Made by a program: the position numbers and the translations under genes
In this document: in pieces, positions 10,893 through 37,219 of the stretch
Layout of the letters: each line of letters opens with the position of its first letter
Numbering within the stretch: position 1 is the first letter of the stretch
Assembly: GCA_964567515.1 (NCBI GenBank)
Contig: CAZMMW010000002.1
Location: 1-37,330 of the forward strand
Length of the DNA: 37,330 bases
Origin: an uncultured Gammaproteobacteria bacterium
GTDB lineage: Bacteria; Patescibacteriota; Patescibacteriia; Veblenbacterales; UBA10138
Direction: 5' to 3'
Notes under the pieces: model-generated
Database searches by the model: none
What the model was told of the DNA's origin: nothing
What the model saw: the letters and a program-made list of their open reading frames with translations, nothing else

Positions 10893-10893
10893 G

Positions 10894-16526: not shown

Positions 16527-16552
16527 TTGGGCGATTAATTTTGCCTACTATA

Positions 16553-16993: not shown

Positions 16994-17012
16994 TGAAAAT
17001 TAGTATTTGATT

Positions 17013-18221: not shown

Positions 18222-18294
18222 AAAAGAAATTTAAAATTAAAAATGCAAAATTCAAAATTATTTTTAATTTTTCACTTTAAACTTTTAACTTTCA
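18222..18294. repeat. AT-rich intergenic palindrome (aaaatt/aatttt type)
   Basis: Shares atttttaatttttca(c/t)ttt...aacttttaacttt with 19375-19447 and with the R2 core. Confidence 0.55.
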
Positions 18295-19374
18295 TTACCT
18301 CATCCTCAACATTGATTGTAAAGCAGAGGGATCAGCAGCCTGCTGGATTGCTTCGTCTGTCTTGACTTCTCCGGTTCTGACTAAATCAGCCAGACTGCGC
18401 TCTAAACTAATCATACCTTCACCACGAGAGGTTTCCAAGACAGTTCTTAGTTGTAATATTTTATTATCCCGGATTAAAGCCTGCACCGGTTCGGTACTAA
18501 TCAACAGTTCACTGACTAATAATCTACCACCGCCCACTCGCGGTACCAAACGTTGACAAGCAGCCGCCAAAAAAATGTCGGCCAATTCCATTCTAAAATT
18601 TTTGGCATCAATATTAGGCAAAATATTACCGGCTATATGCTCCAAAGCCTGAATAGTGGAATCGGCCTCTACTACTACCATAACCAAGGTGCCAGAACCG
18701 GCTAAATTCAACACTTGCGGCCAGGCGGAAGGAGGAATGGGCACATCAATAGCTAAAACATCAGCGTCTTCGTTGCGAACATCATCCAAAGCCTGAGCAA
18801 ACGTTAGAACATCGTCCCCTATATCACGCTGTTTAATTAAAGACTTATCATTAACTAATAAATATTCAATAGGATCTTCTAAGGTTACTAGATGACGCGC
18901 AGTCTGATGATTAATACGATCCAACAATGAACTCATGGTGGTAGTGCGTCCAGAACCCCGGGGGCCTGCTATGATCAGCAAGCCCTCGCGGGCAGTAATA
19001 TATTCAACCAAACGCTTGGGTACGCCTAGCTGCTCACAAGGATAAGCTTGGGGCGAAATATAACGTAAATCAAAAGAAGGCAAATTCTTTTGAAAATCAA
19101 CATGCACTCTAAAACGGGCTTTGTTACCTAAAGCATAACTCACTGTAATGGTACGCTGTTGTAACAATAAATTTTTTTTATCGCTGGGCAATAAAAAATC
19201 AATAGCTTGCTGCAACAAATCAGGACTTAAGACCGGCTCTTGCGTAAGCGTTTCTAATTTGCCGTCTTTCCGCACCACCGGCTGATTGGCGGCCATCAAA
19301 TGAATATCTGATACCTGGCGTTCAGCCGCGGCAGTCAAAATTCTGGCAATAGTTAAATTATCAGTAGTAGACAC
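18295..19374 (-). CDS. PilT-like ATPase homolog with degenerate catalytic motifs
   Basis: Collinear with PilT (SDIHL, TLEDPIEY, GGGR). Walker A is GPRGSGRTT (Lys to Arg). The Walker B/Asp-box region reads DADVLAIDVP (no GE). The His-box reads GTLVMVVVEA. Confidence 0.8.
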   Translation of the reverse strand: MSTTDNLTIARILTAAAERQVSDIHLMAANQPVVRKDGKLETLTQEPVLSPDLLQQAIDFLLPSDKKNLLLQQRTITVSYALGNKARFRVHVDFQKNLPSFDLRYISPQAYPCEQLGVPKRLVEYITAREGLLIIAGPRGSGRTTTMSSLLDRINHQTARHLVTLEDPIEYLLVNDKSLIKQRDIGDDVLTFAQALDDVRNEDADVLAIDVPIPPSAWPQVLNLAGSGTLVMVVVEADSTIQALEHIAGNILPNIDAKNFRMELADIFLAAACQRLVPRVGGGRLLVSELLISTEPVQALIRDNKILQLRTVLETSRGEGMISLERSLADLVRTGEVKTDEAIQQAADPSALQSMLRMR

Positions 19375-19447
19375 AATATAAATTTAAAATTTAAAATTAA
19401 AAGTTAAAAATAATTTTTAATTTTTCATTTTTAATTTTTAACTTTCG
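19375..19447. repeat. AT-rich intergenic palindrome
   Basis: aaagttaaaaat ... atttttaacttt arms. Contains the motif aatttttaatttttcatttttaatttttaacttt. Confidence 0.55.
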
Positions 19448-24378: not shown

Positions 24379-24458
24379 TTATTTATCGCTCTTTTGTTTT
24401 AAAACCCAAGCTTCTTAAATTATAGCACCGCCAATTATAAATTAGAATAATAAGATGT

Positions 24459-24545
24459 TAATTTTCAATTCTCAATTACCAATTCTCAATTAAGTGAAAT
24501 TTGGAAAATTGGAGCTTGTTTGAAAATTGATAATTGATAATTCTT
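24459..24545. repeat. imperfect palindrome of the caatt/aattg family (unoccupied version of the 16553/16971 arms)
   Basis: aattttcaattctcaattaccaattctcaatt ... ggagcttgtttgaaaattgataattgataatt. The segment caaacaagctccaatt also occurs next to the left arm at 16580-16595. Confidence 0.65.
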
Positions 24546-24574
24546 AAACTCGTACTTCCTTCGCTCTTCACTTC

Positions 24575-26641
24575 TCATTGTCTACTAAAAGTCGGCAAGC
24601 CCTTGGCAAAATCAGTCATGCCCGGCGGCGGATTTAACTGCAAACGTCCATCAGCAATAAACTTTTCCGAAGCCTCGCCAGGATCAGCAGGATTAGTAAA
24701 AATTCTGGTTAAATTAAACTGTCTGGCAAACACTGTGCCCAGTACGGTCAGAGATGTAGGCGATGTTGAATCATCGCCGCTTTGGAAAATGCCACAACCA
24801 TCAAATAATCCTTTATTGTCAGCCTGCCAAACTCGACATTTAGGTAAGAGCCCGCACAAAGCCGGAGGACGGCCGCAAACAGAATTATCAATACAGCTTA
24901 AACCAATATTATTGCCAGTTAAACAAGCCTTAGCTGTGCCATAATTCCAGCGATGTCCTAAAATAATGAAATTACCAGCCAACTGTTTAACAGCGGGGTT
25001 TACTATCACATCCCCCAACACTATCCACACTACTGAAGCTAAATTTTGTCTGGTAACAGACCCTCCCACCATACTTGCATAATTAACATTACCCTCAATA
25101 TGTAAATCTCCCAGAACAATAACCGTACCAGCGCCCGAATCCTTACCAGCGCCATTTTGAATTTCCGTTGCTCCCAAAACAACATGCTTGCCCGGCGTGG
25201 CATAGCTAGAGTTAAATATGCCCATATCGCCAACTACATACACTTTATTATTTAAAGAATGACTAAAAATGGAATTAATATCATGAATTGGCACCTGAAC
25301 CACTTCATGATTATAGCGGTTAAGATTATTATTAACTTGCTTGGCCAAGCCCAAAAAATCAAACCGTCCTAATTTAAAGTTATAAGGCTCGCCCGTGTCG
25401 CTGGCCGGACTTAAATTAAGTTTGACGCCAGTTAAACGACATACTGGGTCGGAAGCCTGAAGCTCGCACTGAGTGGAAAAACGGCTGCTAATACTAGCAT
25501 TCTCGCCTACATGCACCAAGTACTGGGCGTTCCTAATATCTCTAGGCGCGGGAAAGTAAGTTTGAATGCCTTTTAAGCTAAAGACATCTCCGCCTTCCAC
25601 CCGCAAATAGGGAAAAATAATATCAACCACATTACAAGATCCGCCAAAACAAATCCAACCGGCGCCGTAAGCGTCAGTTAAACTGCAAGTGCCGCCCGGA
25701 CAATTAGTATTATTAATACAAGCCGAACCGTTGTTAGCGCCATAACGACAAAGTTTAACCACTGGTTCAGTCTGCCAAGCATAACCTTCTATTTTGCTGT
25801 TGTCTAAATCTACTGTTAAACCATAACTTCTTTTATCAGTACATAAAAAATTGGTTGAATTACTATCACAATTCTTAGAACTCAAAGAAATCCAACCCCG
25901 CCCCTTAGGTTCAGCTAAAATTTTAGCCCAACCGCCATTAACCGGGGCCATGACGGTTTCATTACAATCTGGCGTGCCATCAGGAGTCCCTTTTGGGCCG
26001 GTAACATCTTCACAATAAAAAGTAATGTCTAAAGACTGATTGCCCGGCGGACGGTCGCCGGCTAGCAGCTTGCCCTGGCAAGCCGAACCAAAACAAATCC
26101 AGCCCCAAGCGCCGGGTGCTACGCAACTGCCCCCCGGGCAATCGCTGTTAGTTGTACAACGGTTGCCTTTGTTACTGCCGCTATTACATAACCTGCCGGC
26201 TGCTGGCACTGGACCATGCCACGCCATACCAGAAATAGCGCCGCCGGTAGGATTAGGATTCTGGTCAAACTGGTCAAAAGTTAAATGAGAAATAGCGCCG
26301 CCGGTAGGATTAGGATTCTGGTCAAAAGTTAATTTTAAGCCATAATCAACACCAGCGGTGGTAATACACGGATCCGGATTCGGCAACTCATTTAATTTAG
26401 TACAATTTTGCGCATTTAAAGAAATCCAGCCGGCATTAGAAAGTTTATAATTAGCTCCATCGCCAATCGCCGCATTACCCATCCAAGCCCAGCCAGTAAT
26501 GTTATTGGTCTCGGCTGCTTGAGCTGAAGATGCGGCAGGGGAAGATAAAGAAGCCAACAAAAAAACAGACACGCTAGATACTGCCAAAAGAATAATGGTC
26601 GTAATACCTGTCCAATATAAAATTTGTATTTGTTTTATCAT
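24575..26641 (-). CDS. large secreted Cys-rich repeat protein, pilus-locus associated
   Basis: ATG at 26641 (MIKQIQILYW...) gives a signal-like N-terminus ending SSAQA. Contains 26 Cys and two C-x6/7-G-x2-C-x5-CPGG(S/T)C-...-GWICFG(S/G)xC modules. Four G(W/Y/M)AW...GWIS(L)/GWICF repeats. Beta-helix-like C-terminal half. Confidence 0.8.
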   Translation of the reverse strand: MIKQIQILYWTGITTIILLAVSSVSVFLLASLSSPAASSAQAAETNNITGWAWMGNAAIGDGANYKLSNAGWISLNAQNCTKLNELPNPDPCITTAGVDYGLKLTFDQNPNPTGGAISHLTFDQFDQNPNPTGGAISGMAWHGPVPAAGRLCNSGSNKGNRCTTNSDCPGGSCVAPGAWGWICFGSACQGKLLAGDRPPGNQSLDITFYCEDVTGPKGTPDGTPDCNETVMAPVNGGWAKILAEPKGRGWISLSSKNCDSNSTNFLCTDKRSYGLTVDLDNSKIEGYAWQTEPVVKLCRYGANNGSACINNTNCPGGTCSLTDAYGAGWICFGGSCNVVDIIFPYLRVEGGDVFSLKGIQTYFPAPRDIRNAQYLVHVGENASISSRFSTQCELQASDPVCRLTGVKLNLSPASDTGEPYNFKLGRFDFLGLAKQVNNNLNRYNHEVVQVPIHDINSIFSHSLNNKVYVVGDMGIFNSSYATPGKHVVLGATEIQNGAGKDSGAGTVIVLGDLHIEGNVNYASMVGGSVTRQNLASVVWIVLGDVIVNPAVKQLAGNFIILGHRWNYGTAKACLTGNNIGLSCIDNSVCGRPPALCGLLPKCRVWQADNKGLFDGCGIFQSGDDSTSPTSLTVLGTVFARQFNLTRIFTNPADPGEASEKFIADGRLQLNPPPGMTDFAKGLPTFSRQ

Positions 26642-26655
26642 AAACAAGCATTTCT

Positions 26656-26684: not shown

Positions 26685-26803
26685 TAATTAATCAATACTC
26701 TGCGACTATTAACAAAAATTGACACTTATCCCATGCTTAATTGTTATTTGATATACAATGGAGTTAGAAGATAGTAATTTTAGAAGCTAGAAGCTGGAAT
26801 CAA

Positions 26804-27055
26804 GTTCAGGATGACAGTCTCCTCCTGTCATCCTGAACATTCCCTTTTTGTCATCCTGAGCGCCAAGCGAAGGATCTCATGGACGATAGGGTTTTAACCA
26901 GGGGATGTTTCGCTAATACTCAACATGACAATGTTTCCTGTCATTCTGAGGCTTCAGCCGAAGAATCTAAGAGATGTTTTGTTAGCGCTTAACATGACAT
27001 ATAATAAAAAACTGATTCTGATGTTCTAGAATCGGCTTGAATTGATATAAGGTAC
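26804..27055. repeat. R1-L: array of a roughly 100-bp palindromic unit (tgtcatYctgag...ctcaacatgaca) plus a hairpin tail
   Basis: Near-identical to 36883-37219 apart from one extra unit there. Opens with a perfect 13-bp inverted repeat, gttcaggatgaca / tgtcatcctgaac (26804-26838). Confidence 0.85.
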
Positions 27056-27149
27056 ATCTGAATATAATTTTATTTAAAAAATCAATTTTGACTAATCTTA
27101 TAAAATTTTTTATCTTGTCAAAAGTCGTTATTTATGATAGCATACAGTT

Positions 27150-27395
27150 ATGCAAGCCTTACCTGATTTTTTTAAATCCATTCTTTGGTCTTATCGTTTG
27201 GCTGATTGTGATCCTCAAAAAATGAAACGGGTAATTATTCGTCAAGCCTTTGCTTATGGCGCCTTAGCTCATTGGCAATGGGTTTGCCGTTATTATGGCA
27301 AGTCGGAGGTTATTAGAATTCTTAAAAGTTTTGACTCCCGAGTCGTGCGTGAGAAAACTTTAAATTTAGCCGTCGCTCTGTTAGATTTAAACTAA
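27150..27395 (+). CDS. small protein upstream of AbiEii, putative cognate antitoxin-like partner
   Basis: 81 aa ending 3 nt before the toxin ATG. The sequence ILWSY...DP.K....II.Q...YG.L..W.W...YG resembles small proteins I recall being paired with AbiEii genes. Confidence 0.45.
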   Translation: MQALPDFFKSILWSYRLADCDPQKMKRVIIRQAFAYGALAHWQWVCRYYGKSEVIRILKSFDSRVVREKTLNLAVALLDLN

Positions 27396-27398
27396 ACT

Positions 27399-28022
27399 AT
27401 GTTTCCGCAAGCGCTAGATCATGCCACACAGGTCGTTTGGGATCAATGCGGTTTTTTTTCGGATTGTTATTTAGCTGGCGGTACAGCGCTGGCTTTGCAA
27501 TTAGGTCATCGCCGCTCGGTTGATCTGGATTTCTTTTTTAACGAGCCGATTAAACGAATGTTTTTACCGCTAATTGAAAAAAAATTACAATCGTCAGCCG
27601 CTTTGCTGGTTAACACCGCCGATGAGTTAACCGTTACCATCTTGGGTGTTAAAATTACTTGTTTGTATTACCCCTTTACTTTGCTTGAGCCGGTTATTCC
27701 TACAACTGTTATTCCTTTGGCCGGAGTGCGCGACCTAGCCTCTATGAAAGCTTATGCTTTAGGTCGGCGACAATCACTTAAAGACTACGTTGATCTTTAT
27801 GTTATTTTGACGCGCGGTTTAATTTCTCTCCCAGTCTTATTGGCTGATTCCAAGGTCAAGTACGGAGATTTATTTAATGACCGGGTTTTTTTGGAACAGC
27901 TTTTATATACTGCTGATTTAGAGCCAGAGGCGATAGATTGGCTTGTGCCGAAAGTAGAGGTAGAAGAAATTAAGAGTTTTTTTACCGAATTGGTTAATAA
28001 TCACAAAAACGATCTGCTTTAA
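27399..28022 (+). CDS. nucleotidyltransferase AbiEii/AbiGii toxin family protein
   Basis: N-terminal YLAGGTALALQLGHRRSVDLDFF motif is typical of the family. Confidence 0.75.
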   Translation: MFPQALDHATQVVWDQCGFFSDCYLAGGTALALQLGHRRSVDLDFFFNEPIKRMFLPLIEKKLQSSAALLVNTADELTVTILGVKITCLYYPFTLLEPVIPTTVIPLAGVRDLASMKAYALGRRQSLKDYVDLYVILTRGLISLPVLLADSKVKYGDLFNDRVFLEQLLYTADLEPEAIDWLVPKVEVEEIKSFFTELVNNHKNDLL

Positions 28023-28122
28023 TATTTTATAGTTCATTTTAATAAGTTGTTTAAATAAAATACCCCATTCCGATTATTCAGAAGGGGTGTATTGGGTTAA
28101 AAAAACAAAAGTTATTTAAGAT

Positions 28123-28866
28123 GTGTCATTTTTCCAACAGCTCTCTGGCGCTCAACATGACGATTGCTATTGTCATGTTGAGTATTATGGTGTAATGCGT
28201 ATAATTGACCGCCTAGTTAATGAACATCCTGAACGTATAACTATACGTTTAACTGTAACTGCCTTCTCGCTTCCTTACTTGGAAGAAACCGCCGAATTTT
28301 TATGTAAACGTTACCCTGGTATCCCGCAACAATACGAGCCGGCTATGGATTCGTGTTTTGCTGCCCAAGGAATTGCTGATTTCTCTATGCGTCTATTTGT
28401 AGATCAACTAATCAAGGCTTATCAAATAGGGATGAAATATAGCACTCCGATTGGCAATTCCTTTGCAAGAATATCACGATTTAACAGCGACATCAATCGT
28501 TTTTGTGGAGTAAGTTCAATGAAATATACCATTCTTCCAGATGGCAATATAGCTAGTTGCAGCCGAGTACATACCTCCACCGTTCGTTCAACACCATTTT
28601 ATCTTGGTAATATCAATGAGGTTGTTAATAAAAAACGTCCCGTATTCAAATTGCCAACAGTATGTAATGATTGCTATGCAAGATTTGCCTGCAAAGGCGG
28701 TTGCTATGCGCTTCGATATTCCTTTGGTATAAATAAAAATGATGGATTTTCTTTTTGTCATGAGATACGCAGATTGCTTCGTGAAATACTTATTTTACAA
28801 ACAAATAGAAAGGTGGTGAAAAATAGTGGTTCAAACAAATCAAACACCAATACAAACCGAGGATGA
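28123..28866 (+). pseudogene. 5'-truncated radical SAM/SPASM maturase paralog (C-terminal half only)
   Basis: From about 28195 it aligns to residues from about 205 to the end of the 30106 protein (ITIRLTVT/LGIRCTIS; FCGV...P.G....C.RV). The SPASM domain is intact (C-x12-G-x4-C and CNDCYARFACKGGC). The CxxxCxxC core is missing. The apparent N-terminus is translated R1 repeat. Confidence 0.75.
28124..28190. repeat. R1 unit-junction remnant
   Basis: tgtcat...ctcaacatgac gattgctatt gtcatgttgag has perfect 11-bp arms at 28151-28161 and 28172-28182. It matches the R1 unit junction at 37088-37115. Confidence 0.75.
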
Positions 28867-28960
28867 TCTCAATCAAATCGCTATCGTTAGTGTTTCTATT
28901 TCTGAAAAAGAATTCGCCGCTAACGCTTGCGAATGCGACGATTGCGATATCGGTGATTAG
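28826..28960 (+). CDS. putative Cys/Asp-rich precursor peptide P2 (44 aa)
   Basis: GTG start preceded by AAAGGTGGTGA. Translation: VQTNQTPIQTEDDLNQIAIVSVSISEKEFAANACECDDCDIGD. The core aligns with P1 (C..x..CD(L/I)G). Followed by a strong terminator. Confidence 0.5.
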   Translation: MVQTNQTPIQTEDDLNQIAIVSVSISEKEFAANACECDDCDIGD

Positions 28961-28971
28961 TTCCTTCCAAC

Positions 28972-29002
28972 AACGAGTAGCTATAGACGCTACTCGTTTT
29001 TT
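28972..29002 (+). terminator. rho-independent terminator
   Basis: aacgagtagc tatagac gctactcgtt has a perfect 10-bp stem running into a T-run. Confidence 0.75.
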
Positions 29003-29022
29003 ATAATATTATTTAATCAGTT

Positions 29023-29463
29023 ATGATAAATAGATTGACTAAAAAAAGGCTACTAAAAGCTATCTCTTTAATTCCACCATCACCTAACCAAGCCTATATA
29101 GAAAAGGTAATTGAAGCTGTTCATTCGCTATTTGATCAACATAAATATTATGTCTTAACTACTAAAAATTACCGCCTATCTCGAGGGGCTACTTTAAATT
29201 TTATTCTTAAAAATCGCTTACGAACCTGCGGCAGTATAACCACCGTTTTAGCCCATATCTTACGCTCAGTCGGTTTTACAGTAATGCTAGTTGACGGCAA
29301 ATTAAGAAAAGACAATAAGTGGAGCAAACATAGTTGGCTTAAAGTAAAACTGGGCAAAACCTGGCACAGTTTTGATCCTTTTTCAAAAAATTTTCTCATA
29401 GACAAAAAAACGCATAAAGTATTAGGGGTTTATTCGTCGTGGAAAGAAATTAAGCAAAAATAA
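29023..29463 (+). CDS. transglutaminase-like cysteine protease-fold protein
   Basis: Cys-His-Asp pattern: RTCGSITTVLAHILRSVGF ... KHSWLKV ... WHSFDP, with spacing typical of the transglutaminase core. Confidence 0.65.
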   Translation: MINRLTKKRLLKAISLIPPSPNQAYIEKVIEAVHSLFDQHKYYVLTTKNYRLSRGATLNFILKNRLRTCGSITTVLAHILRSVGFTVMLVDGKLRKDNKWSKHSWLKVKLGKTWHSFDPFSKNFLIDKKTHKVLGVYSSWKEIKQK

Positions 29464-29477
29464 TTCTCTTGCCGGTG

Positions 29478-29690
29478 GCGAACGAGTTTCACTATTCATT
29501 CTTCTAGCTTCTTGCTTCCTGATTCCAAATTCCAAAATTATTACTGAAAACCAATAACTAACTAGGAACTAAAAAGATTCCAACATTTACAACACTATAA
29601 CAAATTAAACTCAAAACTTAATTTTTCATTTTTAATTTTTAACTTTAAACTCTCATCACAGTTTTTGACAGTATAAACTGGTAATTACAC
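29478..29690. repeat. R2 copy 1
   Basis: gcgaacgagtttcactattcattcttc ... catttacaacactataacaaattaaactcaaaacttaatttttcatttttaatttttaactttaaactctcatcacagYttttgRcagtata. Shared with 36357-36647. The core is shared with 32419-32522. Confidence 0.85.
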
Positions 29691-29718
29691 CGACCACGCT
29701 TAAACTGTAATATTCAAA

Positions 29719-29746
29719 TTGACAAATAAAATAATTGTTATAAAAT
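29719..29746 (+). promoter_or_regulatory. sigma70-like promoter for the P1-rSAM operon
   Basis: TTGACA, a 16-nt spacer, then TAAAAT. Lies about 125 nt upstream of the P1 ATG. Confidence 0.5.
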
Positions 29747-29872
29747 ATTAATGGTTCTTTGAAAACTCCTCATGAGTAAATCAAGTGCAATATTGTTAAA
29801 TGTGTTATAAACATAGCAACAGCTTGAATGCAAAAAACCATTGGTTATTAAGAAAGGAGGTGAAGGAACACT

Positions 29873-29998
29873 ATGGATATAAAACGTTTAACCGAGCTCA
29901 GTCAAAATATTGTAAAACTTCCGGAATTCACGACCATGCGTGTACCAGAAGGGTGCAATGACTGCTGTTGTGATTTAGGCTGTGAAACGTATTCATAG
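29873..29998 (+). CDS. putative Cys-rich precursor peptide P1 (41 aa)
   Basis: AAAGGAGGTGAAGG SD lies 7 nt before the ATG. Translation: MDIKRLTELSQNIVKLPEFTTMRVPEGCNDCCCDLGCETYS. Sits 107 nt upstream of the rSAM gene on the same strand. Confidence 0.75.
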   Translation: MDIKRLTELSQNIVKLPEFTTMRVPEGCNDCCCDLGCETYS

Positions 29999-30028
29999 TC
30001 ACCGCCATCCAAACAATATAAAGCAGAC

Positions 30029-30064
30029 GAGGGAGTAATAAAGTATATACTTTATTACTCCCTC
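30029..30064 (+). promoter_or_regulatory. perfect 36-nt palindrome between P1 and the rSAM gene
   Basis: gagggagtaataaagtatatactttattactccctc equals its own reverse complement. No T-run follows. Confidence 0.7.
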
Positions 30065-30105
30065 ACTAGTTACAACATAATACCTAAAATAAGGAGATAA
30101 TATAA

Positions 30106-31368
30106 ATGCCACTACATCGCGTCTTTAAGATGTCTGTTCCACCAATGGGAACTATCGTATTTATGCCAGATGAAGAAAAACTCTTCCTAGTGGACGATGC
30201 CTCAACAATTCCTGACGAAATTATGAGTGAAACTCCGATTCCTTCTTTTACTCGTTTACCAGACTTCACTTATAGAGCAGCTCACTTGATCTTGAATAAC
30301 TTATGTAATCTGCAATGTACCTATTGTTATGCCAATGCCGGTGACTCGACTCCAATTGAAATGTCACCAATGGTAATGCGTGCCACCATAACCAAAATTG
30401 TATCTGACACTATTACCTTGGGACAATCAATATTCGAGCTTGGATTCATAGGGGGCGAGCCAACACTATCACTTGCGCTTATGAACGAAGGGGAACAGCT
30501 GGCGCGTCAATTGGCGGCTGAAGCTGGAATTAGAGCACGGGTCGGTATTGTAAGCAATGGTTACTATTCTGCTGATGTTGGTGATTATATTCTGAAGTAT
30601 CTTGACTATGCTACCATCTCTTTAGATGGTCCTCAAGAAATTCAAGATCATCAACGCCCGACACGAGGTGGGCGCGGATCCTTTGCTCAAGTCTATAACA
30701 ACGCCCAACGTCTATATGACGCGGGTTTCCCTCTTGGAATCCGTTGCACGATTTCTCGCGAAAGCGTTAATAGGCTTCCTCAAATAATTGAATTCCTGCA
30801 CAATTCGTTTCCTAAATCTGTAATCGGCTTAGAACCTCTGCAGGAATGTGGACGCTGTGCTCTTACTCACGCCTGCGGACCAAATCCAGAGGAATTGGTA
30901 GATCAAATGATTGAAGTGCTAAAGTTGGTATTATCGCGTCAAATCAAACTTAAATCTTCAATCTTGCGCTTTAAGATTCAAGGATCTGACATCAGTTTCT
31001 GTGGGGTGAATGGTCAAAATTTTGCTGTAACGCCACAAGGTTATGTAACCGCCTGCACTAGAGTAATTTCACACCAAGAACGCTCCGCTCAAATTTTTCA
31101 CTATGGATCTTATGACCACAACCTTAACCGTTTTGTCTTTGATACTGTAAGGTACGCCTGGCTGAAAAAGATAGTTGTTGACTCAATTGAACAGTGTGCC
31201 GATTGCTTCGCTCGATACAATTGTAAGGGAGATTGCGCGGCAATCAAAGCTGATGCCTATGGCGACGTTTTAATTACCCAACCCAGCCCTCGCTGTTCGT
31301 CAATCCGTCGATTAACAGAGGCTCTATTTCGACTACGTGTTGGATTAGAACCGGCAGCTAGCAAATAA
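30106..31368 (+). CDS. radical SAM/SPASM-domain peptide maturase
   Basis: AAGGAG SD. CNLQCTYCYA (CxxxCxxC) about 65 aa from the N-terminus, GGEP motif. SPASM: FCGVNGQNFAVTPQGYVTAC, CADCFARYNCKGDC and a downstream Cys. Confidence 0.9.
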   Translation: MPLHRVFKMSVPPMGTIVFMPDEEKLFLVDDASTIPDEIMSETPIPSFTRLPDFTYRAAHLILNNLCNLQCTYCYANAGDSTPIEMSPMVMRATITKIVSDTITLGQSIFELGFIGGEPTLSLALMNEGEQLARQLAAEAGIRARVGIVSNGYYSADVGDYILKYLDYATISLDGPQEIQDHQRPTRGGRGSFAQVYNNAQRLYDAGFPLGIRCTISRESVNRLPQIIEFLHNSFPKSVIGLEPLQECGRCALTHACGPNPEELVDQMIEVLKLVLSRQIKLKSSILRFKIQGSDISFCGVNGQNFAVTPQGYVTACTRVISHQERSAQIFHYGSYDHNLNRFVFDTVRYAWLKKIVVDSIEQCADCFARYNCKGDCAAIKADAYGDVLITQPSPRCSSIRRLTEALFRLRVGLEPAASK

Positions 31369-31381
31369 CTAGCTGTTTTTT
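31355..31381 (+). terminator. rho-independent terminator
   Basis: cagctag caaataa ctagctg followed by tttttt. The stop codon lies in the loop. Confidence 0.65.
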
Positions 31382-31471
31382 ATTAAAGCTAACCAGAAAT
31401 TCATCTACCGCGTGTTTCTTTAAATTAGATAGCTCCTTGTAATAGTTTAATCTAATTATTAAAATAGTAAT

Positions 31472-32356
31472 ATGACTATTATTCTAAAATCAAATAAGCA
31501 ACTCTTTGCTATGCATTTATTAATTGCGCTCTTGGAAAAAAGGGTAAATATATTTAATAATCGTAAATTAGAAAAACTCTTTAATTCTCTCTTGGTTGAT
31601 AAAAATTTTAAAAAATTAATCTCTAAGCTACGAGCTAATAATCTTAATTCTAACTCCTGCCGACGTTTTATAAATTTACTACTTCTACCACCTAATTCTC
31701 AATTTATTGATGAAGAATTATTAACACCATACCAAAACTTAAAACCTATATTAAACTCTTACATGAATTCTGACCCCATTGAAAAATTTTTTCAATTATA
31801 CTGCGAATATTTAACTAAATTTATTAAATATAAAAACCGCCTTTTTCAATCAGAAGCCCAACGTCTTCTGCGTTTCTTTCGCTTGCCTAGTTCTTGGTTT
31901 GGTATAATTTACGTTCATATTAATGCCCTTGATTCACTAGGGGTGGGGAATAATTACTTCCGTAAACATTCCTCTATAATCTCTGTGCCAACGCTGTCAG
32001 GGGGAACTATAAGTCTTTCAGGATTCCGCCATGAACTAATGCACATCATCCTGAAAAAATTATGGGTAAATAATCTGACTGCAACACATTTTCATCTGCA
32101 AGTTCCGAGCAACTACCAAACAGATAGTCTTCGGGTTCAATTTGATGAATATTTTATTGTAACAGCAAATATTTTCTTTCTCCCAGCCGATCGACAAAGT
32201 AAACAATTGGAATATTTAGCCAAACACGGTTTTTCTGATATTAATATCTTTTATAATTTCCTTAGATTAAATTTCCTAACCAGATCTAAAAAGCTAGAAG
32301 TAAAACTGTTAAAAGAGCTCCTAGATCTGCTTGAAAAACAGTTAAATAAATTATGA
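31472..32356 (+). CDS. hypothetical protein with HExxH motif (putative metallopeptidase)
   Basis: 294 aa, very AT-rich. Single HELMH motif (GFRHELMHIILKK). No third ligand identified. Confidence 0.4.
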   Translation: MTIILKSNKQLFAMHLLIALLEKRVNIFNNRKLEKLFNSLLVDKNFKKLISKLRANNLNSNSCRRFINLLLLPPNSQFIDEELLTPYQNLKPILNSYMNSDPIEKFFQLYCEYLTKFIKYKNRLFQSEAQRLLRFFRLPSSWFGIIYVHINALDSLGVGNNYFRKHSSIISVPTLSGGTISLSGFRHELMHIILKKLWVNNLTATHFHLQVPSNYQTDSLRVQFDEYFIVTANIFFLPADRQSKQLEYLAKHGFSDINIFYNFLRLNFLTRSKKLEVKLLKELLDLLEKQLNKL

Positions 32357-32418
32357 TTAGCAAATTAACCAAACAAAAGTTGCCCCAAACTGTTTCCTTC
32401 ATTCCCCTCGGGGACTAT
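32353..32418 (+). pseudogene. 5' remnant of a second transglutaminase-like gene
   Basis: The ATG overlaps the upstream stop (ATGA). MISKLTKQKLPQTVSFIP compares with MINRLTKKRLLKAISLIP at 29023. Homology ends where R2 copy 2 begins. Confidence 0.55.
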
Positions 32419-32522
32419 CATTTACAACACTATAACAAATTAAACTCAAAACTTAATTTTTCATTTTTAATTTTTAACTTTAAACTCTCATCACAGCTTT
32501 TGACAGTATAGACCAGTTACAC
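32419..32522. repeat. R2 copy 2 (core only)
   Basis: Near-identical to 29584-29690 and 36545-36647. Confidence 0.85.
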
Positions 32523-32528
32523 TATAAT
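32500..32528 (+). promoter_or_regulatory. consensus sigma70 promoter
   Basis: TTGACA (inside R2), exactly 17 nt, then TATAAT (just outside R2). Lies 110 nt upstream of the ATG at 32638. Confidence 0.6.
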
Positions 32529-32637
32529 TTGTTCCAAGTTTTACTCCTACCATAAACCCTCCTGATAAACATATCATTATAATTAAAGGGTTGTTTTATG
32601 TTATGCTTTATTTAGAGATCAACTATTATTTGTATTT

Positions 32638-33312
32638 ATGATAGCGGGAAATATAAAATTAAAGATGATAAGCTATGGTGTTCATTCGTCTATTAAGGGT
32701 AAATACTTTAAAGAATTTTCAAAGGCCGCTGATAAATTGATAAAATTCTTCCCGACTTCTCCATCTCTAGTTGAAATACACCTCTTTTCTAAACGAGGTG
32801 CTTTTGCTAAAAAAATTAAAAAGAAAAAAATTCCCAACTGGCTAATGGGGTATACACCAATAAGTAATCCTAACAAAATTTTTATTTATACCAAAGATTC
32901 TAGATTACTATCTAGTATTAGATTAAAAAAATTAGTACGACATGAATTAGCTCATGTTTTTACTAATCAGCTTAATCCTACTTTACCAACCTGGATAAAA
33001 GAAGGACTGGCGGTTTATTTAGCTAAACAGATTATCAAACCTTCTATTACCAAACGCGATTGGAAATTTATTAAACCGAATAAAAATTATAATTTTTTTG
33101 GCAGAAATTGGAACTCGCTGGTAAACAACCACCGAGCTTACAATAATTCCGGTTTGGTTGTTCAACAATTTATAAAAAGTTATGGACAAAAGAATTTTTT
33201 AAATGTATTAACCAAACATCAAACTAACCAAGATATAATCTTATCACTGGCTCTGTCTTTCAAAAAAACCAGTAAATCAATTATGGTGAATTTAGAAAAA
33301 CTATTATGCTAA
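32638..33312 (+). CDS. peptidase MA-like zinc metallopeptidase (HExxH...E)
   Basis: VRHELAHVFTNQLNPTLPTWIKEGLAVYLA follows the HExxH + W..EGlA gluzincin pattern. Confidence 0.6.
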   Translation: MIAGNIKLKMISYGVHSSIKGKYFKEFSKAADKLIKFFPTSPSLVEIHLFSKRGAFAKKIKKKKIPNWLMGYTPISNPNKIFIYTKDSRLLSSIRLKKLVRHELAHVFTNQLNPTLPTWIKEGLAVYLAKQIIKPSITKRDWKFIKPNKNYNFFGRNWNSLVNNHRAYNNSGLVVQQFIKSYGQKNFLNVLTKHQTNQDIILSLALSFKKTSKSIMVNLEKLLC

Positions 33313-33326
33313 GAGTAAAATAGATA

Positions 33327-34571
33327 ATGAATGATACTATTATGGTAAATCAAACGACTAAGAATCGAGTATGGATTTTTTATCTTAGTTCCTTTCTTAA
33401 TGCCCTATCAAGTGGTGTAGTAGGACCCTTGTTAATTGTGTATCTTCTTACTTTAAACCTTTCCACTGCCCAAGTTGGACTACTGCTAGCGATTGAACGC
33501 GGCGCTACCATAATAACTGAATTTCCTACTGGTGTTTTTGCTGACAAATATGGCCGACGTAAATCCCTTCTTATCTCCTTTGGTCTACTCGCCTTAATCC
33601 TTACTGCCTGGTTTTTTACTAAAAGCTACTTGGTTTTTATTATTCTTTCCTTTTGTTGGGGGCTAGCTTACACTTTCCAGAGTGGCGCTAAGGAATCTTT
33701 TGTGATTGACTCGCTTAATCTAGCCAACGATGATACTTCAAGAAATAAGGTATTCTCACGACTCGCTGCTGCTGGCAATTTTGGTTTAGTGATTGGTGGA
33801 TTAATAGCGGCCGGATTAACACTAGTTTCTCTACGTTCCATCTGGTTAGCGGCAGCGGTTGCTAACGGCTTCCTCTTCCTGCTCTTCCTGACAGCTACGC
33901 ACGAAATACCAAACAGCTCCGATACTAAAATTAATCGACAAGGAACGCTAAAAGGATTTATTTCATCATCACTTCAAAGTCTACGATCTATTTCTGCTTC
34001 ACGGACAATTTCTCGCCTCATGGGGATAACTATAATAGTTGGCCTAGTTATGGCAATCTATGGATTCTCTTACCCCATACTGTTTAAGACGCTTGGTTTG
34101 CCGCTCTACTACTTTGGCTTACTCGGTTCTGTGGCGGCAATCTTAGGAATTACTGGTGCTTTATTAGGAGAGAAAATAGTTAAACGTGCTGGATATCGCA
34201 CTTCACTCACCTACCTTACTTTTATTCTTATTATACTTTTTTCTATATTTGGCTTCACTGAAACTTTGGGAGTTACTATTCTACTTTTTGCTACAATTGA
34301 GTTAACGCTCCACGGTTGGTTTCCTATATATAATTCATTCCTAAATAAATTTATTCCAAATGGATTACGAAGTAGTCTATTATCAATAAATTCAACCTTA
34401 AGTTTGCTGGCTCTGGCTGGTGGCGAGCTTATGGCCGGCGCCTTAGTAATGATAGTCTCACCTGCTCAACTTATTGCCTGGGGAGGTATTCTACTTGTAA
34501 TCATCCTACTGCTACTTAGAAATATCAATCACTCTACAACAACGAATAATACACCAAAGGCAACGCGATGA
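33327..34571 (+). CDS. MFS transporter
   Basis: 414 aa with about 12 TM segments. MFS motif A: GVFADKYGRRKSLL. Confidence 0.85.
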   Translation: MNDTIMVNQTTKNRVWIFYLSSFLNALSSGVVGPLLIVYLLTLNLSTAQVGLLLAIERGATIITEFPTGVFADKYGRRKSLLISFGLLALILTAWFFTKSYLVFIILSFCWGLAYTFQSGAKESFVIDSLNLANDDTSRNKVFSRLAAAGNFGLVIGGLIAAGLTLVSLRSIWLAAAVANGFLFLLFLTATHEIPNSSDTKINRQGTLKGFISSSLQSLRSISASRTISRLMGITIIVGLVMAIYGFSYPILFKTLGLPLYYFGLLGSVAAILGITGALLGEKIVKRAGYRTSLTYLTFILIILFSIFGFTETLGVTILLFATIELTLHGWFPIYNSFLNKFIPNGLRSSLLSINSTLSLLALAGGELMAGALVMIVSPAQLIAWGGILLVIILLLLRNINHSTTTNNTPKATR

Positions 34572-34573
34572 AT

Positions 34574-34621
34574 AAAAAAGAGTCGTCTAAATAAGAAATA
34601 ATTTCCTATAATAAACGACTC
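34574..34621 (-). terminator. possible terminator for the minus-strand rSAM-P3 operon
   Basis: On the minus strand: gagtcgt ...28 nt... acgactc followed by ttttttatt. The long loop makes this weak. Confidence 0.35.
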
Positions 34622-34634
34622 GTGACGGTTGCTG

Positions 34635-34745
34635 TTAACAACACCCGCCTGCGCGACACATCGGATTCATATTGAGTTTACCAAGAATCCGCGCTGGCCT
34701 ACGAAGCGGCTTTGCTTTAAGACCAGTAATCGCTTGTTTTTTCAT
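34635..34745 (-). CDS. putative Cys-rich precursor peptide P3 (36 aa)
   Basis: The ATG directly abuts the rSAM TAG (TAGATG). GGAGGTGG SD lies 8 nt upstream. Translation: MKKQAITGLKAKPLRRPARILGKLNMNPMCRAGGCC. Confidence 0.7.
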   Translation of the reverse strand: MKKQAITGLKAKPLRRPARILGKLNMNPMCRAGGCC

Positions 34746-36107
34746 CTATACCACCTCCTTTCGAGCGTCTTTCTGTTTTATAGTGCCATTCTCAGTCATA
34801 ACTTCTAAAAGCAGAGAATGTGTTACTTTTTTAAAAACCTCACATCGATACCAAAACGCTTCTAGTGAGTTGGTATATTTACCATATTCTGAAGTTATGT
34901 AACATCCACCCATACACTGCCCTTCAATTTCGCAACCTTTACACGCTTTGATGTTTCCTATAACCCGCGAGGTGATAAGAGAACGGAAACTATCAGATTG
35001 AAAAATATCGTCTAACCCTTCTACCGTTCCTAATTCAGTACGACTATAGGAGCAAGGTAAAACAATCCCTGAGGGAGAAACAGATATTCCCATTCCAGTA
35101 AAAGCCGAGCAATTAAAGAGTTTATTCTTGAGTCGAGATTCAAACATATTTTTGAATGGTTTATCCCACAAACCACCAACTGTGATATTTCTTTTTTCTC
35201 CTAGTTTCTTAAACCACAACAACATATCAACTAGCTCATCGGGATCCTTTTGAAGAGAATTAATCATGTCAGGTTCAAAAGAACATGAGGTAATACCACG
35301 ATCGGCTAAAAAATCAAAGAAATTTTCTTTAATTCTATCAATATTCTGATCTGTGAGTGTTAAACAAAACCATTCAACTTTCTTACCTTCTTTATCCAGA
35401 TTATCCCATCCTGAGATAATACGCCGAAAAGTACCGTTGCCAGAAACTAATCGACGAATTTGGTCGTTTACCTCTAATGGCCCATCTAAACTCGTAGTAA
35501 CTGTAACATTATTTTGCGCTAAGTAACCTGCTCGTGTTGGCGTTATTAAAGACGCATTACTATTGGTAGAAAATGCAAATTCATAACTATTACCATACCT
35601 ACCAACAGAATAATCTATCACTTTTTGCATCAAATTCCACGCTAGTAACGGCTCACTGCCGCCAAAATAAATCTCAACTTTATTCCTTTGTCTCCTCTTA
35701 ATAAAATTCATAAACCTATCAATTGCATTTTTGGCAATAGACCAAGTCATCCGACGCACTTTTGACAACTTCTTGTTAGAAGCCTCTATAACCTTCCGTG
35801 CTAAACAATATGAACAATTGAAGTTACAACGCTCATCTAAAATTAACCCTAGAGAAGACAGGTGTTGCCCCCTACAAATTCTATCAATATACTTCTTTAT
35901 CGTCCGATGTAAATGTATTCTTTCATCTTGCCACTCGGGAATTAAAAAATGGTGTTTAATAAATAAATGAAGCCACTGCTCTAAATTCTCAATGGTATAT
36001 TGAGCTTGTATGTCTTGTAAACTGCAGGGGCGGCGAAAAAGATTGAGAACAAAAATACACTGTTCGTTTAGAATTATAGGGTGCCCAAAGAGAGAATTAT
36101 AAACCAA
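34746..36107 (-). CDS. radical SAM/SPASM-domain peptide maturase
   Basis: CNFNCSYCLA about 95 aa from the N-terminus. SPASM: FNCSAFTGMGISVSPSGIVLPC and CKGCEIEGQCMGGC. The track start is a TTG. The frame stays open to 36200 with family-like sequence (HLIIKKYQDGTLVYNSL) but no ATG/GTG, so the start is uncertain. Confidence 0.88.
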   Translation of the reverse strand: MVYNSLFGHPIILNEQCIFVLNLFRRPCSLQDIQAQYTIENLEQWLHLFIKHHFLIPEWQDERIHLHRTIKKYIDRICRGQHLSSLGLILDERCNFNCSYCLARKVIEASNKKLSKVRRMTWSIAKNAIDRFMNFIKRRQRNKVEIYFGGSEPLLAWNLMQKVIDYSVGRYGNSYEFAFSTNSNASLITPTRAGYLAQNNVTVTTSLDGPLEVNDQIRRLVSGNGTFRRIISGWDNLDKEGKKVEWFCLTLTDQNIDRIKENFFDFLADRGITSCSFEPDMINSLQKDPDELVDMLLWFKKLGEKRNITVGGLWDKPFKNMFESRLKNKLFNCSAFTGMGISVSPSGIVLPCSYSRTELGTVEGLDDIFQSDSFRSLITSRVIGNIKACKGCEIEGQCMGGCYITSEYGKYTNSLEAFWYRCEVFKKVTHSLLLEVMTENGTIKQKDARKEVV

Positions 36108-36277
36108 AGTCCCATCTTGATATTTCTTAATAATTAGATGGGGAGACTGAATGAATCTATTTCTATTATTGTCAATTATAGTTAACCTCTTTTTTTGTTC
36201 TTAGTCGTTTCTACTCACTCCAATAGCAATTAAACGAGATAGAATATTTTTAAAGTACTGTTTGGAGTATTCTATTT

Positions 36278-36317
36278 TAATATCAAATACACCATATTAA
36301 TATCAAATACACCATAT
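36278..36317. repeat. perfect 2 x 20-bp tandem direct repeat
   Basis: taatatcaaatacaccatat occurs twice. On the minus strand it yields TTGATA-17/18-ATATTA/TATTAA, a possible promoter or operator for the rSAM-P3 operon. Confidence 0.8.
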
Positions 36318-36334
36318 TGTTAAATGGCGATTTA

Positions 36335-36363
36335 ACAAAAACCCGCTCGCTATTCAGCGAACG
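36335..36363 (-). terminator. minus-strand intrinsic terminator upstream of the rSAM-P3 promoter region
   Basis: On the minus strand: CGTTCGCT gaat AGCGAGCG (8 bp, one G-U pair), then ggtttttgtt. Confidence 0.45.
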
Positions 36364-36647
36364 AGTTTCACTATTCATTCTTCTTTCTTTTACCTTCCAG
36401 CTTCTAGCCACCATGGACAGATTAGTTTTAAAAATTTCAACTACAACATTTACAACATTACAACAAATAAAACAGCTTCTAGTTTCCAAATTCCAAAATT
36501 ATTACTGAAAACCAATAACTAACTAGGAACTAAAAAGATTCCAACATTTACAACACTATAACAAATTAAACTCAAAACTTAATTTTTCATTTTTAATTTT
36601 TAACTTTAAACTCTCATCACAGCTTTTGGCAGTATAAGCCAGTTACT
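36357..36647. repeat. R2 copy 3 (longest, with about 95 bp of internal extra sequence)
   Basis: Collinear with copy 1 at both ends. Internal partial duplication: caacatttacaacattacaacaaataaaac versus caacatttacaacactataacaaattaaac. Confidence 0.85.
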
Positions 36648-36882
36648 CTACCAAGATCAGGATCTATATAAACTCCAACCACAAACTCGCCATTAGGACA
36701 AGAGGATGCACCTTGCTCAAAACTATTAATCCGGAACTAAAAGATTTATCTGATGATATTACTTAGATGCTGAAATACCTGTCCGCCGTCCGCCTTCCTG
36801 ATGAGTGTACCTAAACCACCAATTCGTTGATGGGTTGATAACAAACGGAGGCAGCTTTGGATTTAGACTTTGGCAGACGGGA

Positions 36883-37219
36883 GTTCAGCCTGACGGTTGT
36901 TATTGTCATCCTGAACATTACCTTTCTGTCATCCTGAGCGCCAAGCGAAGAATCTCATGGACGATAGGGTTTAACAATGGGATGTTTCGCTAATACTCAA
37001 CATGACAATGTTTCCTGTCATTCTGAGGCTTCAGCCGAAGAATCTCATGGACAACAGGGTTTTAACCAGGGGATGTTTCGCTAATACTCAACATGACGAT
37101 TGTCGTTGTCATTCTGAGGCTTCAGCCGAAGAATCTAAGAGATGTTTTGTTAGCGCTTAACATGACATATAATAAAAAGCCGATTCTGTTTAGAATCGGC
37201 TTGAATTAATATAAGGTAC
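36883..37219. repeat. R1-R: array of the roughly 100-bp palindromic unit, one unit longer than R1-L
   Basis: Direct repeat of 26804-27055. Both copies end in gaatcggcttgaatt(g/a)atataaggtac. Confidence 0.85.
37171..37202 (-). terminator. rho-independent terminator for the right-edge minus-strand gene
   Basis: aagccgattct gttt agaatcggctt has an 11-bp stem. On the minus strand it is followed by tttttatt. A degraded copy lies at about 27010-27038. Confidence 0.6.

Follow-up and report, generated by a model that had tools for sequence, protein, structure and literature searches.

Does the cluster of radical S-adenosylmethionine (SAM) genes on contig CAZMMW010000002.1 (GCA_964567515.1) encode one peptide-modifying system or several? 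We addressed this question in the window, i.e. the whole stretch of DNA analysed (positions 1–37,330), and studied the segment 27056–36882 (~9.8 kb). The original prediction had described this segment as an island holding a single system of ribosomally synthesised peptides with post-translational modification (RiPPs), in which three SPASM-type radical SAM enzymes (rSAM1–3), each beside a small Cys-rich open reading frame (ORF; P1–P3), shared one list of peptidases and exporter. The RiPP reading of the locus is strongly supported, but the single system is not. Instead, the segment holds three separate, independently conserved cassettes, two intact and one decayed, because each enzyme has its own conserved partners: the HExxH protein ORF294 goes with P1/rSAM1, a transglutaminase-like protease with rSAM2/P2, and a major facilitator superfamily (MFS) transporter with rSAM3/P3. 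We consider it fairly likely that this is a variable chromosomal region in which three unrelated radical SAM RiPP cassettes accumulated, with thioether cross-linking of cysteines as their most likely chemistry; this is the best explanation overall. The enzymes and peptides concerned are as follows.

28123–28866, plus strand: rSAM2 remnant, comprising the C-terminal part and the SPASM domain (TIGR04085 at 1e-8 only).
28826–28960, plus strand: P2 precursor peptide, 44 aa, core ACECDDCDIGD, overlapping the rSAM2 stop codon.
29873–29998, plus strand: P1 precursor peptide, 41 aa, core CNDCCCDLGCETYS, motif C-x-D-x-C-C-D-x-x-C.
30106–31368, plus strand: rSAM1, radical SAM/SPASM maturase, 420 aa (PF04055 at 2.5e-14).
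34635–34745, minus strand: P3 precursor peptide, 36 aa, with a very basic leader and the C-terminus NMNPMCRAGGCC (…NMNPxCRAGGCC-COOH).
34746–36179, minus strand: rSAM3, radical SAM/SPASM maturase with an N-terminal domain homologous to the RiPP recognition element (RRE) (PF04055 at 1.6e-14, and SPASM, PF13186).

The three enzyme genes were present where they had been placed before (28123–28866 and 30106–31368 on the plus strand and 34746–36107 on the minus strand), and the C-x2-C-x5-C-x3-C motif attributed to them was found in all three sequences (CADCFARYNCKGDC, CKGCEIEGQCMGGC and CNDCYARFACKGGC), including the rSAM2 remnant. In the searches with PF04055 and TIGR04085 that had been proposed as a check, rSAM1 and rSAM3 matched PF04055, and the product of 28123–28866 matched TIGR04085 only. 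Pairwise identity among rSAM1, rSAM2 and rSAM3 is only 22–27%. The features generally expected of radical SAM/SPASM RiPP maturases were observed, namely CxxxCxxC (rSAM1 and rSAM3), the seven-Cys SPASM pattern, with SPASM cysteines that are invariant in the enzyme families, and a co-conserved adjacent peptide.

The micro-ORFs P1, P2 and P3, which the ORF track had missed, are open at the positions given, and each is preceded by a Shine-Dalgarno (SD)-like sequence. They are confirmed as genuine genes by comparative evidence, because each recurs beside an orthologous radical SAM/SPASM enzyme in other contigs, mostly from the Candidate Phyla Radiation (CPR). A regular-expression search of 101 sequences (637 kb) translated in six frames found the core motifs solely adjoining the cognate rSAM gene, on its strand and at the expected position. 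This specificity is far beyond chance, and an origin of P1, P2 and P3 as chance ORFs was therefore rejected. Absence or frameshifting of the small ORFs in homologous loci would have spoken against the original prediction; the peptides were instead found to accompany orthologous enzymes in dozens of loci, and this co-conservation of precursor and SPASM maturase supports the RiPP-type reading. Pfam and NCBIfam scans of eight different peptides gave no match, in agreement with the earlier view that they lie outside the named families.

The best NCBIfam model for rSAM1, rSAM3 and a clade-B relative was that of the ranthipeptide maturase PapB (NF047865, cut-off 340 bits), with scores of 119.0 for rSAM1 and 128.7 for rSAM3, both below the cut-off. 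The next models were those of nif11, SCIFF, QhpD, RumMC and CcpM maturases, all far under their curated cut-offs (340–720 bits). With the SCIFF maturase model (TIGR03974, 425 bits), both intact enzymes scored 94 bits, and the peptides had no SCIFF match. It could also be argued that the enzymes are SPASM proteins outside RiPP biosynthesis, similar to anaerobic sulfatase-maturating enzymes (anSMEs) or engaged in cofactor biosynthesis, and that the small ORFs beside them are fortuitous. Models and structures of anSMEs do match significantly (TIGR03942 at 75–83 bits; 4K36/4K37 at ~1e-22), and two relatives have been named "sulfatase maturation enzyme AslB" by JGI. However, the anSME scores (74.6 and 82.6 bits) are far below the 349-bit cut-off and lower than those of the RiPP maturase models (PapB, nif11, SCIFF, QhpD); neither the window nor related loci contained a sulfatase gene; the peptide ORFs are conserved and site-specific, share the strand of the enzyme gene and follow an SD; and rSAM3 carries an RRE-homologous domain. 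An anSME-type function was rejected on scores and gene context and is effectively refuted by the co-conservation of the peptides, and we regard a non-RiPP role as extremely improbable.

Module 1 is intact, in the order P1, hairpin, rSAM1 and ORF294, and includes two further features.

30027–30066: hairpin with an 18-bp stem between P1 and rSAM1.
31472–32356, plus strand: ORF294, HExxH…E metallopeptidase-like protein, with a homologue directly following the rSAM1 orthologue at 10 of 12 loci.

The hairpin is possibly an attenuator or a transcript-stabilising element. In rSAM1, the CxxxCxxC motif (C67/C71/C74) and the seven SPASM cysteines are invariant across the family; no RRE was detected in the enzyme, and its conserved N-terminal extension is only 56 residues long. 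Our survey covered 12 distinct loci with relatives at least 37% identical to rSAM1. The closest are no more than 50% identical, and those with a name are mostly from CPR bacteria. A P1-like ORF lies directly upstream, on the same strand, in 11 of these loci. The core takes the form CNDCCCDL[GS]C[ED]T[YF] in the window and L001, C[TC]D[CK]CCD[LV][GK]C in L004/5, L006 and L102, and CCD[QN]CCDDY[IV]C in L007–L010, L101 and L103, the invariant positions of the family being C, D, CC, D and C. Every cysteine of the P1 core (C-N-D-C-C-C-D-L-G-C-E) is followed by an acidic residue 1–3 positions later, and the same is true of the P2 core (C-E-C-D-D-C-D). In ranthipeptides, Cys donors are linked to Asp/Glu acceptors located C-terminal to them, and PapB can also use a free C-terminal carboxylate as a recognition element (PMC12373016). 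The donor–acceptor arrangement is present in P1 and P2 (CNDCCCDLGCE and CECDDCD) and not in P3. The best match in the PDB for a hidden Markov model (HMM) of the rSAM1 family was CteB (5WGG, 8.7e-37), aligned from CteB residue 97, i.e. past its RRE.

A homologue of ORF294 is located directly downstream of the rSAM1 orthologue in the 10 loci mentioned above. The family has the invariant residues H187, E188, H191 and E226, forming an HExxH…E pattern, and has no match in Pfam or NCBIfam; only 21 relatives were found among 1.84e9 representative proteins, and profile searches against solved structures gave nothing meaningful. A confident model required an alignment: single-sequence AlphaFold reached a pLDDT (predicted local distance difference test) of 38 only, and AF2 with the alignment of those relatives gave a pLDDT of 89.6 and a pTM (predicted template modelling score) of 0.88. 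Foldseek identified no strong PDB neighbour for this model, but zinc peptidases accounted for four of the six top chains; the matches included 4L7A (E = 0.045), the M61 peptidase 7XYO and the aminopeptidase-N family member 4FGM, with collagenases next. On the basis of this model, ORF294 probably represents a new gluzincin-like peptidase family and the leader peptidase of module 1.

Some relatives of module 1 lie near recombinase genes. L102 has its rSAM1 orthologue in two ORFs (5001–6246), likely through a frameshift, and an intact P1-like peptide, with a phage-type integrase (9465–10394) 3.5 kb away. In L103 (1–1411), a serine recombinase is found upstream. Module 1 may therefore be horizontally mobile in other genomes. 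Distant rSAM1 relatives (26–32% identity) were found in a Pacearchaeota (DPANN) archaeon, in Polyangium and in an Anaerolineales metagenome-assembled genome (MAG); in these loci (L011 7106–7345, L012 4982–5254 and L013 3168–3290), the Cys/Asp-rich peptide sits downstream of the enzyme rather than upstream.

Module 2 has the order rSAM2, P2 and transglutaminase-like protease, with rSAM2 truncated here. The features to be added are:

28151–28182: solo hairpin repeat unit (repeat family D4), at the breakpoint of the rSAM2 truncation.
29023–29463, plus strand: transglutaminase-like Cys protease, 146 aa (PF01841, Transglut_core, at 6e-7).

The remnant is 78% identical to residues 187–410 of an intact orthologue, P0184 (411 aa); a second orthologue, P0185, has 373 aa. 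The first homologous residue of the remnant ORF is number 21 (nt 28183), aligned with P0184 residue 187, so that about 186 N-terminal residues, including CxxxCxxC, are gone. The original prediction of a 5'-truncated copy at 28123–28866 was correct in this respect: the truncation is proven and, because the N-terminal radical-SAM half with CxxxCxxC is missing, the gene is a pseudogene as judged from the alignment. The first 20 codons of the remnant ORF derive from the solo hairpin repeat (28151–28182), and the location of this repeat at the breakpoint implicates the repeats in the rearrangement. A terminator-like hairpin (28972–28998) follows P2. In the loci L019 and L020, an ORF of 43–44 aa overlaps the stop codon of the intact rSAM2 gene and ends in …ADACEC[D/G]DCDIGD, as P2 does (…ADACECDDCDIGD in L019 and …ADACECGDCDIGD in L020), and the protease orthologue follows, with 77% (L019) and 46% (L020) identity. 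The C69, H103 and D118 triad of this protease is invariant, making it a candidate for the leader peptidase of module 2.

Module 3 is intact apart from an odd start codon, with rSAM3 followed by P3 and the MFS gene convergent with them. The neighbouring features are:

32638–33312, plus strand: MA224, a small gluzincin-type (HExxH-18-E) peptidase-like protein (PF13485, Peptidase_MA_2, at 1.9e-6, below the cut-off).
33327–34571, plus strand: MFS transporter, convergent with P3 (PF07690 at 8e-32).

The accessory genes listed in the original prediction, i.e. the transglutaminase-like Cys protease, the two HExxH proteins and the MFS transporter, were thus all recovered, by the Pfam scan and by their HExxH motifs. 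The rSAM3 gene had been placed at 34746–36107. The gene is there, but its N-terminus reaches ~36179: the ORF with a canonical start ends at 36107 (TTG), and the conserved segment FIQSPHLIIKKYQDGT is encoded in frame upstream of that codon. The stretch 36108–36179 contains no ATG, GTG or TTG, and ATA and ATT codons are found at 36179/36176, 6–9 nt after AAGAGG. The true start is likely to be one of these two codons, unless the start codon has been lost. The CxxxCxxC motif of rSAM3 (C94/C98/C101) is invariant in the family. The sequence AAGGAGGTG lies 6 nt ahead of the P3 ATG, which abuts the rSAM3 stop codon; P3 is free of acidic residues and has its cysteines at the free C-terminus.

We found about 40 rSAM3 relatives at 43–58% identity, and a metagenome scan yielded 80 further loci; the lineage has been recovered so far mostly from CPR or unassigned metagenome contigs. 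At more than 40 loci, a P3-type peptide (very basic, 25–40 aa) is encoded directly downstream of the rSAM3 relative. Three types can be distinguished: …RILGxxNMNPxC[RT][AS]GGCC-stop at 13 places, one of them in the window, and each time immediately behind the rSAM3 orthologue; …AAAPSC[YF][PT]G[AS]C-stop in L018 (two tandem copies) and L031; and …LPKRKV[LF]NTCxx[PT]SNC… at 24 places, in an enzyme clade at 31–35% identity. Conservation of these peptides is concentrated at the extreme C-terminus. Orthologues of the MFS transporter (34–50% identity) are convergent right behind a CRAGGCC-type peptide in eight loci, and the transporter is accordingly the presumed exporter of module 3.

Some loci related to module 3 have distinctive neighbours. 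In L018 (1–7770), the rSAM and the tandem peptides …AAPSCFTGSC and …AGPSCFTGAC have copper-resistance genes as neighbours, which encode cupredoxin proteins, a CsoR-type repressor and two HMA-domain P-type ATPases; the proximity could reflect a link to metals or be coincidental. Loci of the NTCxxPSNC clade have a gene for a RimJ/RimL-type GNAT acetyltransferase directly after that of the peptide (L036 4501–4989, L040 4509–5015 and L052 4514–5002), and L052 has in addition a second, PqqD-fused rSAM (5257–6666). These genes suggest added tailoring or self-immunity in this clade.

MA224 has weak matches to M1-aminopeptidase active sites. We rejected ORF294 and MA224 as paralogues, as the profile–profile comparison gave a probability of 53% over a 30-column N-terminal stretch only. 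L019 (5478–7674) encodes a fourth rSAM/SPASM type of 455 aa, with NirJ2-, AhbD- and PqqE-like models as its best NCBIfam matches, an overlapping peptide of 48–51 aa ending in DESGDCGCFDCDGTPCDKE and, convergent beside them, an MA224 orthologue (63% identity). A fourth rSAM and peptide of this type, absent from the window, may be the real partner of MA224, and we therefore place MA224 in none of the three modules.

The original prediction had related the enzymes to thioether maturases. This holds insofar as PapB provides the best curated model and CteB is nearest to rSAM1, but rSAM3 is nearest to TigE, a cyclopropyl synthase. The HMM of the rSAM3 family aligned over its full length with TigE (8VPO, 1e-68; positions 6–459 on TigE 4–459), compared with 2.6e-37 for CteB. 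TigE carries an N-terminal RRE (residues 3–85) and acts as a methyl-cyclopropylglycine synthase; the cyclopropyl synthases are defined by a strictly conserved GYW motif, the tyrosine of which (Tyr339 in TigE) ligates auxiliary cluster I (Aux I) and is essential (PMC10878394). In the rSAM3 family, the motif is G-[L/M/F]-W in all 26 aligned sequences, and no repeated Val/Ile motif was found in the P3-type peptides; rSAM3 was rejected as a cyclopropyl synthase on these grounds. By alignment, the family is a sister of the cyclopropyl synthases that lacks their diagnostic feature, and it falls outside them because the GYW tyrosine is absent.

A reaction of rSAM3 at the P3 C-terminus other than thioether formation should nevertheless be weighed, i.e. 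C–C bond or cyclopropane-like chemistry as in TigE/TvgB, or an oxidative decarboxylation/cyclisation of the C-terminus as in the mycofactocin enzyme MftC, with the family still serving as RiPP maturases. The far better match to TigE than to CteB would be explained in this way, as would the conservation of the P3 peptides at their extreme C-terminus and the absence of an Asp/Glu acceptor. The missing GYW tyrosine and Val/Ile repeats are difficult to reconcile with it, and the invariant residues of the P3 peptides are cysteines, pointing to sulfur chemistry. We consider such a reaction unlikely.

Under the preferred reading, that of thioether cross-linking, module 1 would operate as follows. P1 would be translated and then acted on by rSAM1 as a SPASM enzyme similar to CteB and PapB, which would abstract hydrogen from the carbons adjoining the carboxylates of the conserved Asp/Glu residues and join those carbons to the preceding Cys thiols, yielding a compact thioether-bridged core (C-x-D-x-C-C-D-x-x-C). 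ORF294 would then remove the leader by cutting, probably behind a conserved G-[E/Q/K]-[A/G/N] ahead of the core. Cys–Asp/Glu thioethers are plausible for both P1 and P2, and the Cys/acidic pattern of these two peptides fits several very small rings of the ranthionine type. In module 2, P2 and the transglutaminase-like protease are intact, and P2 is probably no longer matured because rSAM2 has lost its radical-SAM half. In module 3, the N-terminal RRE of rSAM3 would bind the basic leader of P3. In thioether synthases, CteB among them, an open iron site at Aux I binds the substrate cysteine. Loss of the tyrosine that caps Aux I in TigE would leave such an open site in rSAM3, which therefore probably binds a substrate Cys at this cluster, as those synthases do. 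Our best guess is that it closes a small ring at the extreme C-terminus of P3 (C-x4-C-C-COOH), and the convergent MFS would export the product. The data show the gene content, the rSAM2 truncation, the active-site motifs and the co-conservation of enzymes, peptides and accessory genes; the thioether chemistry, the roles of the peptidases, export and any antimicrobial or signalling activity are inferred from them.

Several observations weigh against this explanation. Homology does not allow a function to be assigned to the rSAMs, whose scores (119–129 bits, with a PapB cut-off of 340) are far below every curated threshold. The nearest characterised relative of rSAM3, TigE, makes cyclopropane C–C bonds rather than thioethers. 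P3 and its relatives lack an acidic acceptor, and the idea of a C-terminal carboxylate is weakened by the NTCxxPSNC clade, where the last Cys is followed by up to three residues. The lack of a canonical start codon means that rSAM3 could be poorly expressed. In L002/L003 (Azambacteria), the rSAM1 orthologue has no P1 ORF, and one SPASM Cys is replaced by Tyr. The structural likeness of ORF294 to peptidases is weak (Foldseek E = 0.045–0.8, TM ~0.3). Finally, a dedicated exporter is missing from module 1, both in this segment and in most other loci, and the product of the module may thus stay inside the cell. This last point, together with the extreme Cys and Asp content of the cores and the location of the P3-related locus L018 within a copper-resistance cluster (P-type ATPase, CsoR and HMA proteins), could indicate that the Cys/Asp-rich products, P1 and P2 especially, are, rather than secreted antimicrobials, intracellular or metal-handling molecules matured by the rSAMs, such as a metallophore, a metallothionein-like peptide or a redox-cofactor precursor. 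However, exported RiPPs typically have a leader and core with a dedicated peptidase, an MFS exporter is closely tied to module 3, and the copper link concerns a single locus; we therefore judge an intracellular or metal-related role to be decidedly improbable.

With regard to the segment as a whole, the following repeats and neighbouring genes bear on whether it is an island.

26803–27055: left flanking direct repeat, composed of G+C-rich hairpin units (tgtcatcctgag…).
36881–37219: right flanking direct repeat, with one additional 91-nt unit relative to the left copy.
27150–27395, plus strand: DUF6922 protein, probable AbiEii antitoxin partner (PF21956 at 1e-11).
27399–28022, plus strand: AbiEii-family nucleotidyltransferase toxin of a type IV toxin–antitoxin (TA) system (PF08843 at 1.1e-12).
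29478–29691: intergenic repeat copy 1 (D1/D11), upstream of P1, with a promoter-like TTGACA-16-TAAAAT at 29719–29746.
32349–32526: intergenic repeat copy 2, upstream of MA224, with a perfect TTGACA-17-TATAAT at 32500–32528.
36357–36652: intergenic repeat copy 3 (D11 + D1).

The flanking direct repeats named in the original prediction are real (93–97% identity between the left and right copies), but the island that they were taken to bound is itself only weakly supported, because a mobility gene is lacking and the composition does not shift clearly. As stated previously, integrase and transposase genes are absent: the Pfam scan of the segment showed neither, and no tRNA gene was found in the window. 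The G+C content inside the segment (0.30–0.42, against ~0.37 overall) is not distinctive. The flanking repeats and the TA pair are consistent with an island. This DUF6922 and AbiEii pair (type IV TA/abortive infection), omitted from the original prediction, lies between the left repeat and the truncated rSAM2 gene; HepT/MNT TA pairs occur near the RiPP cassettes of the related locus L019.

The units of both flanking repeats belong to one family of hairpin repeats rich in G+C (tgtcat[ct]ctgag…, 91 nt per unit), and the left flanking repeat, as single-stranded DNA, folds much better than shuffled sequence (z = −4.7). No copies of the hairpin repeat were found in the remaining 26 kb of the window, and it has no Rfam match. 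It looks like a MITE/REP-like element (miniature inverted-repeat transposable element/repetitive extragenic palindrome) driving rearrangement. A second, intergenic repeat of 178 nt is present in three direct copies (29514–29691, 32349–32526 and 36475–36652; 93% and 68% identity), with promoter-like hexamers at, or just beyond, the ends of copies 1 and 2; a further repeat pair links 29478–29525 with 36357–36404. Copy 3 is not followed by an obvious gene, and 36650–36880 may represent what is left of one.

The window is a chromosomal stretch with a G+C content of ~37%. From 227 to 26647, all genes are on the minus strand and include those for DsbA/DsbD-like proteins, GatA amidase, NAD-dependent DNA ligase, two PMT-type glycosyltransferases and a complete type IV pilus set (prepilin peptidase, pilins, PilC, PilT-like, PilB, PilO and PilM). 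Named relatives of the segment proteins come from Candidatus Azambacteria, Kuenenbacteria, Uhrbacteria, Saccharibacteria and "Patescibacteria group". Because the gene content and these relatives fit, the host is probably a Patescibacteria/CPR bacterium and the window a segment of its chromosome. Scans for tRNA genes and Rfam families in the window found neither. A gene of this minus-strand block (24575–26647) encodes a Cys-rich protein of 690 aa with an N-terminal hydrophobic segment, probably secreted, for which the Pfam search gave no match; it contains a perfect 39-nt duplication, 57 nt apart (26231–26269 and 26288–26326), producing a repeated NPNPTGGAIS motif. A+T-rich intergenic repeats and inverted repeats surround the pilin-like and pilus ATPase genes (8434–11671, 16436–19446 and 24449–24547; families D3, D5, D6, D8 and I1–I5), suggesting duplicated pilin cassettes or common regulatory elements.

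Radical SAM/SPASM RiPP cassettes are already well known as a kind, and these particular families are not curated, as the peptides match nothing in Pfam or NCBIfam, the enzymes score under all cut-offs and ORF294 belongs to a new and rare family. Reports on CPR/Patescibacteria, whose genomes are tiny, usually mention few or no biosynthetic gene clusters. One survey found no such clusters in its Patescibacteria MAGs (PMC11613949), and our search of the literature on CPR bacteria and RiPP/SPASM systems, within the literature covered, did not turn up a description of these systems. In the present case, 10 kb of DNA encode three radical SAM peptide cassettes, each of a family that recurs in other, mostly CPR, genomes or metagenomes. 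If their products are antimicrobials or signals, they would bear on how these episymbionts deal with competitors and with their hosts. Two cases are of enzymological interest: the rSAM3 family, a natural "tyrosine-less" sister of the cyclopropyl synthases, in which it can be asked what the Aux-I ligand decides, and the very close Cys-x-Asp and Cys-Asp spacings handled by an enzyme of the PapB/CteB kind. With ORF294 comes a new, rare HExxH…E family, represented by ~20 of 1.84 billion sequences. As the enzyme–substrate pairs are now defined, these proposals are directly testable by heterologous co-expression. A bolder view, which we put forward only tentatively and regard as rather doubtful, is that the rSAM3/P3 lineage, including the NTCxxPSNC and PSCYPGAC peptides, is an unrecognised RiPP class, in which a TigE-like enzyme without the Aux-I tyrosine carries out a new reaction at the extreme C-terminus of very short, strongly cationic peptides (e.g. 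a macrocycle from Cys to the C-terminal residue), and that P1/rSAM1/ORF294 is a second new class. If so, genome-reduced episymbiotic CPR bacteria would invest in several dedicated peptide natural products, and ORF294 would be a new family of zinc leader peptidases in its own right.

Among known systems, QhpD, which forms Cys–Asp/Glu thioethers, is the second-best NCBIfam match of rSAM3 (111.5 bits). Unlike the situation in QhpD systems, qhp genes are lacking, a small stand-alone peptide is the substrate, and the score is far under the cut-off of 453. Lasso-peptide B2 leader peptidases use a transglutaminase-like fold, and module 2 resembles systems with such peptidases in having a small Transglut_core protein with a Cys-His-Asp triad right after the precursor. 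It differs from lasso systems in lacking a lasso cyclase, a separate RRE (B1) and a lasso core, and its protease accompanies an rSAM/SPASM enzyme. The rSAM3 family resembles TigE/TvgB in an alignment that spans the RRE, the radical SAM barrel and the SPASM domain, and in the retained G-x-W context. It differs in the replacement of the Aux-I Tyr by Leu, Met or Phe in all 26 sequences and in its convergent MFS exporter, and its substrates are very basic peptides of 25–40 aa ending in C-x4-5-C, whereas those of TigE/TvgB carry TVGG/TIGSVS repeats. The PapB (freyrasin) and CteB (SCIFF/thermocellin) systems share with the cassettes described here the radical SAM core, the seven-Cys SPASM domain and, in the case of P1 and P2, short precursors with clustered cysteines followed by Asp/Glu. 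However, rSAM1 and rSAM3 reach about one third of the PapB cut-off, rSAM1 aligns only after the CteB RRE, and the Cys–acceptor spacing is much tighter in P1 and P2 (C-x-D-x-C-C-D-x-x-C and ACECDDCDIGD) than the C-x3-D of PapA. Module 1 also differs from the PapB and CteB systems in its dedicated partner, the new HExxH protein ORF294.

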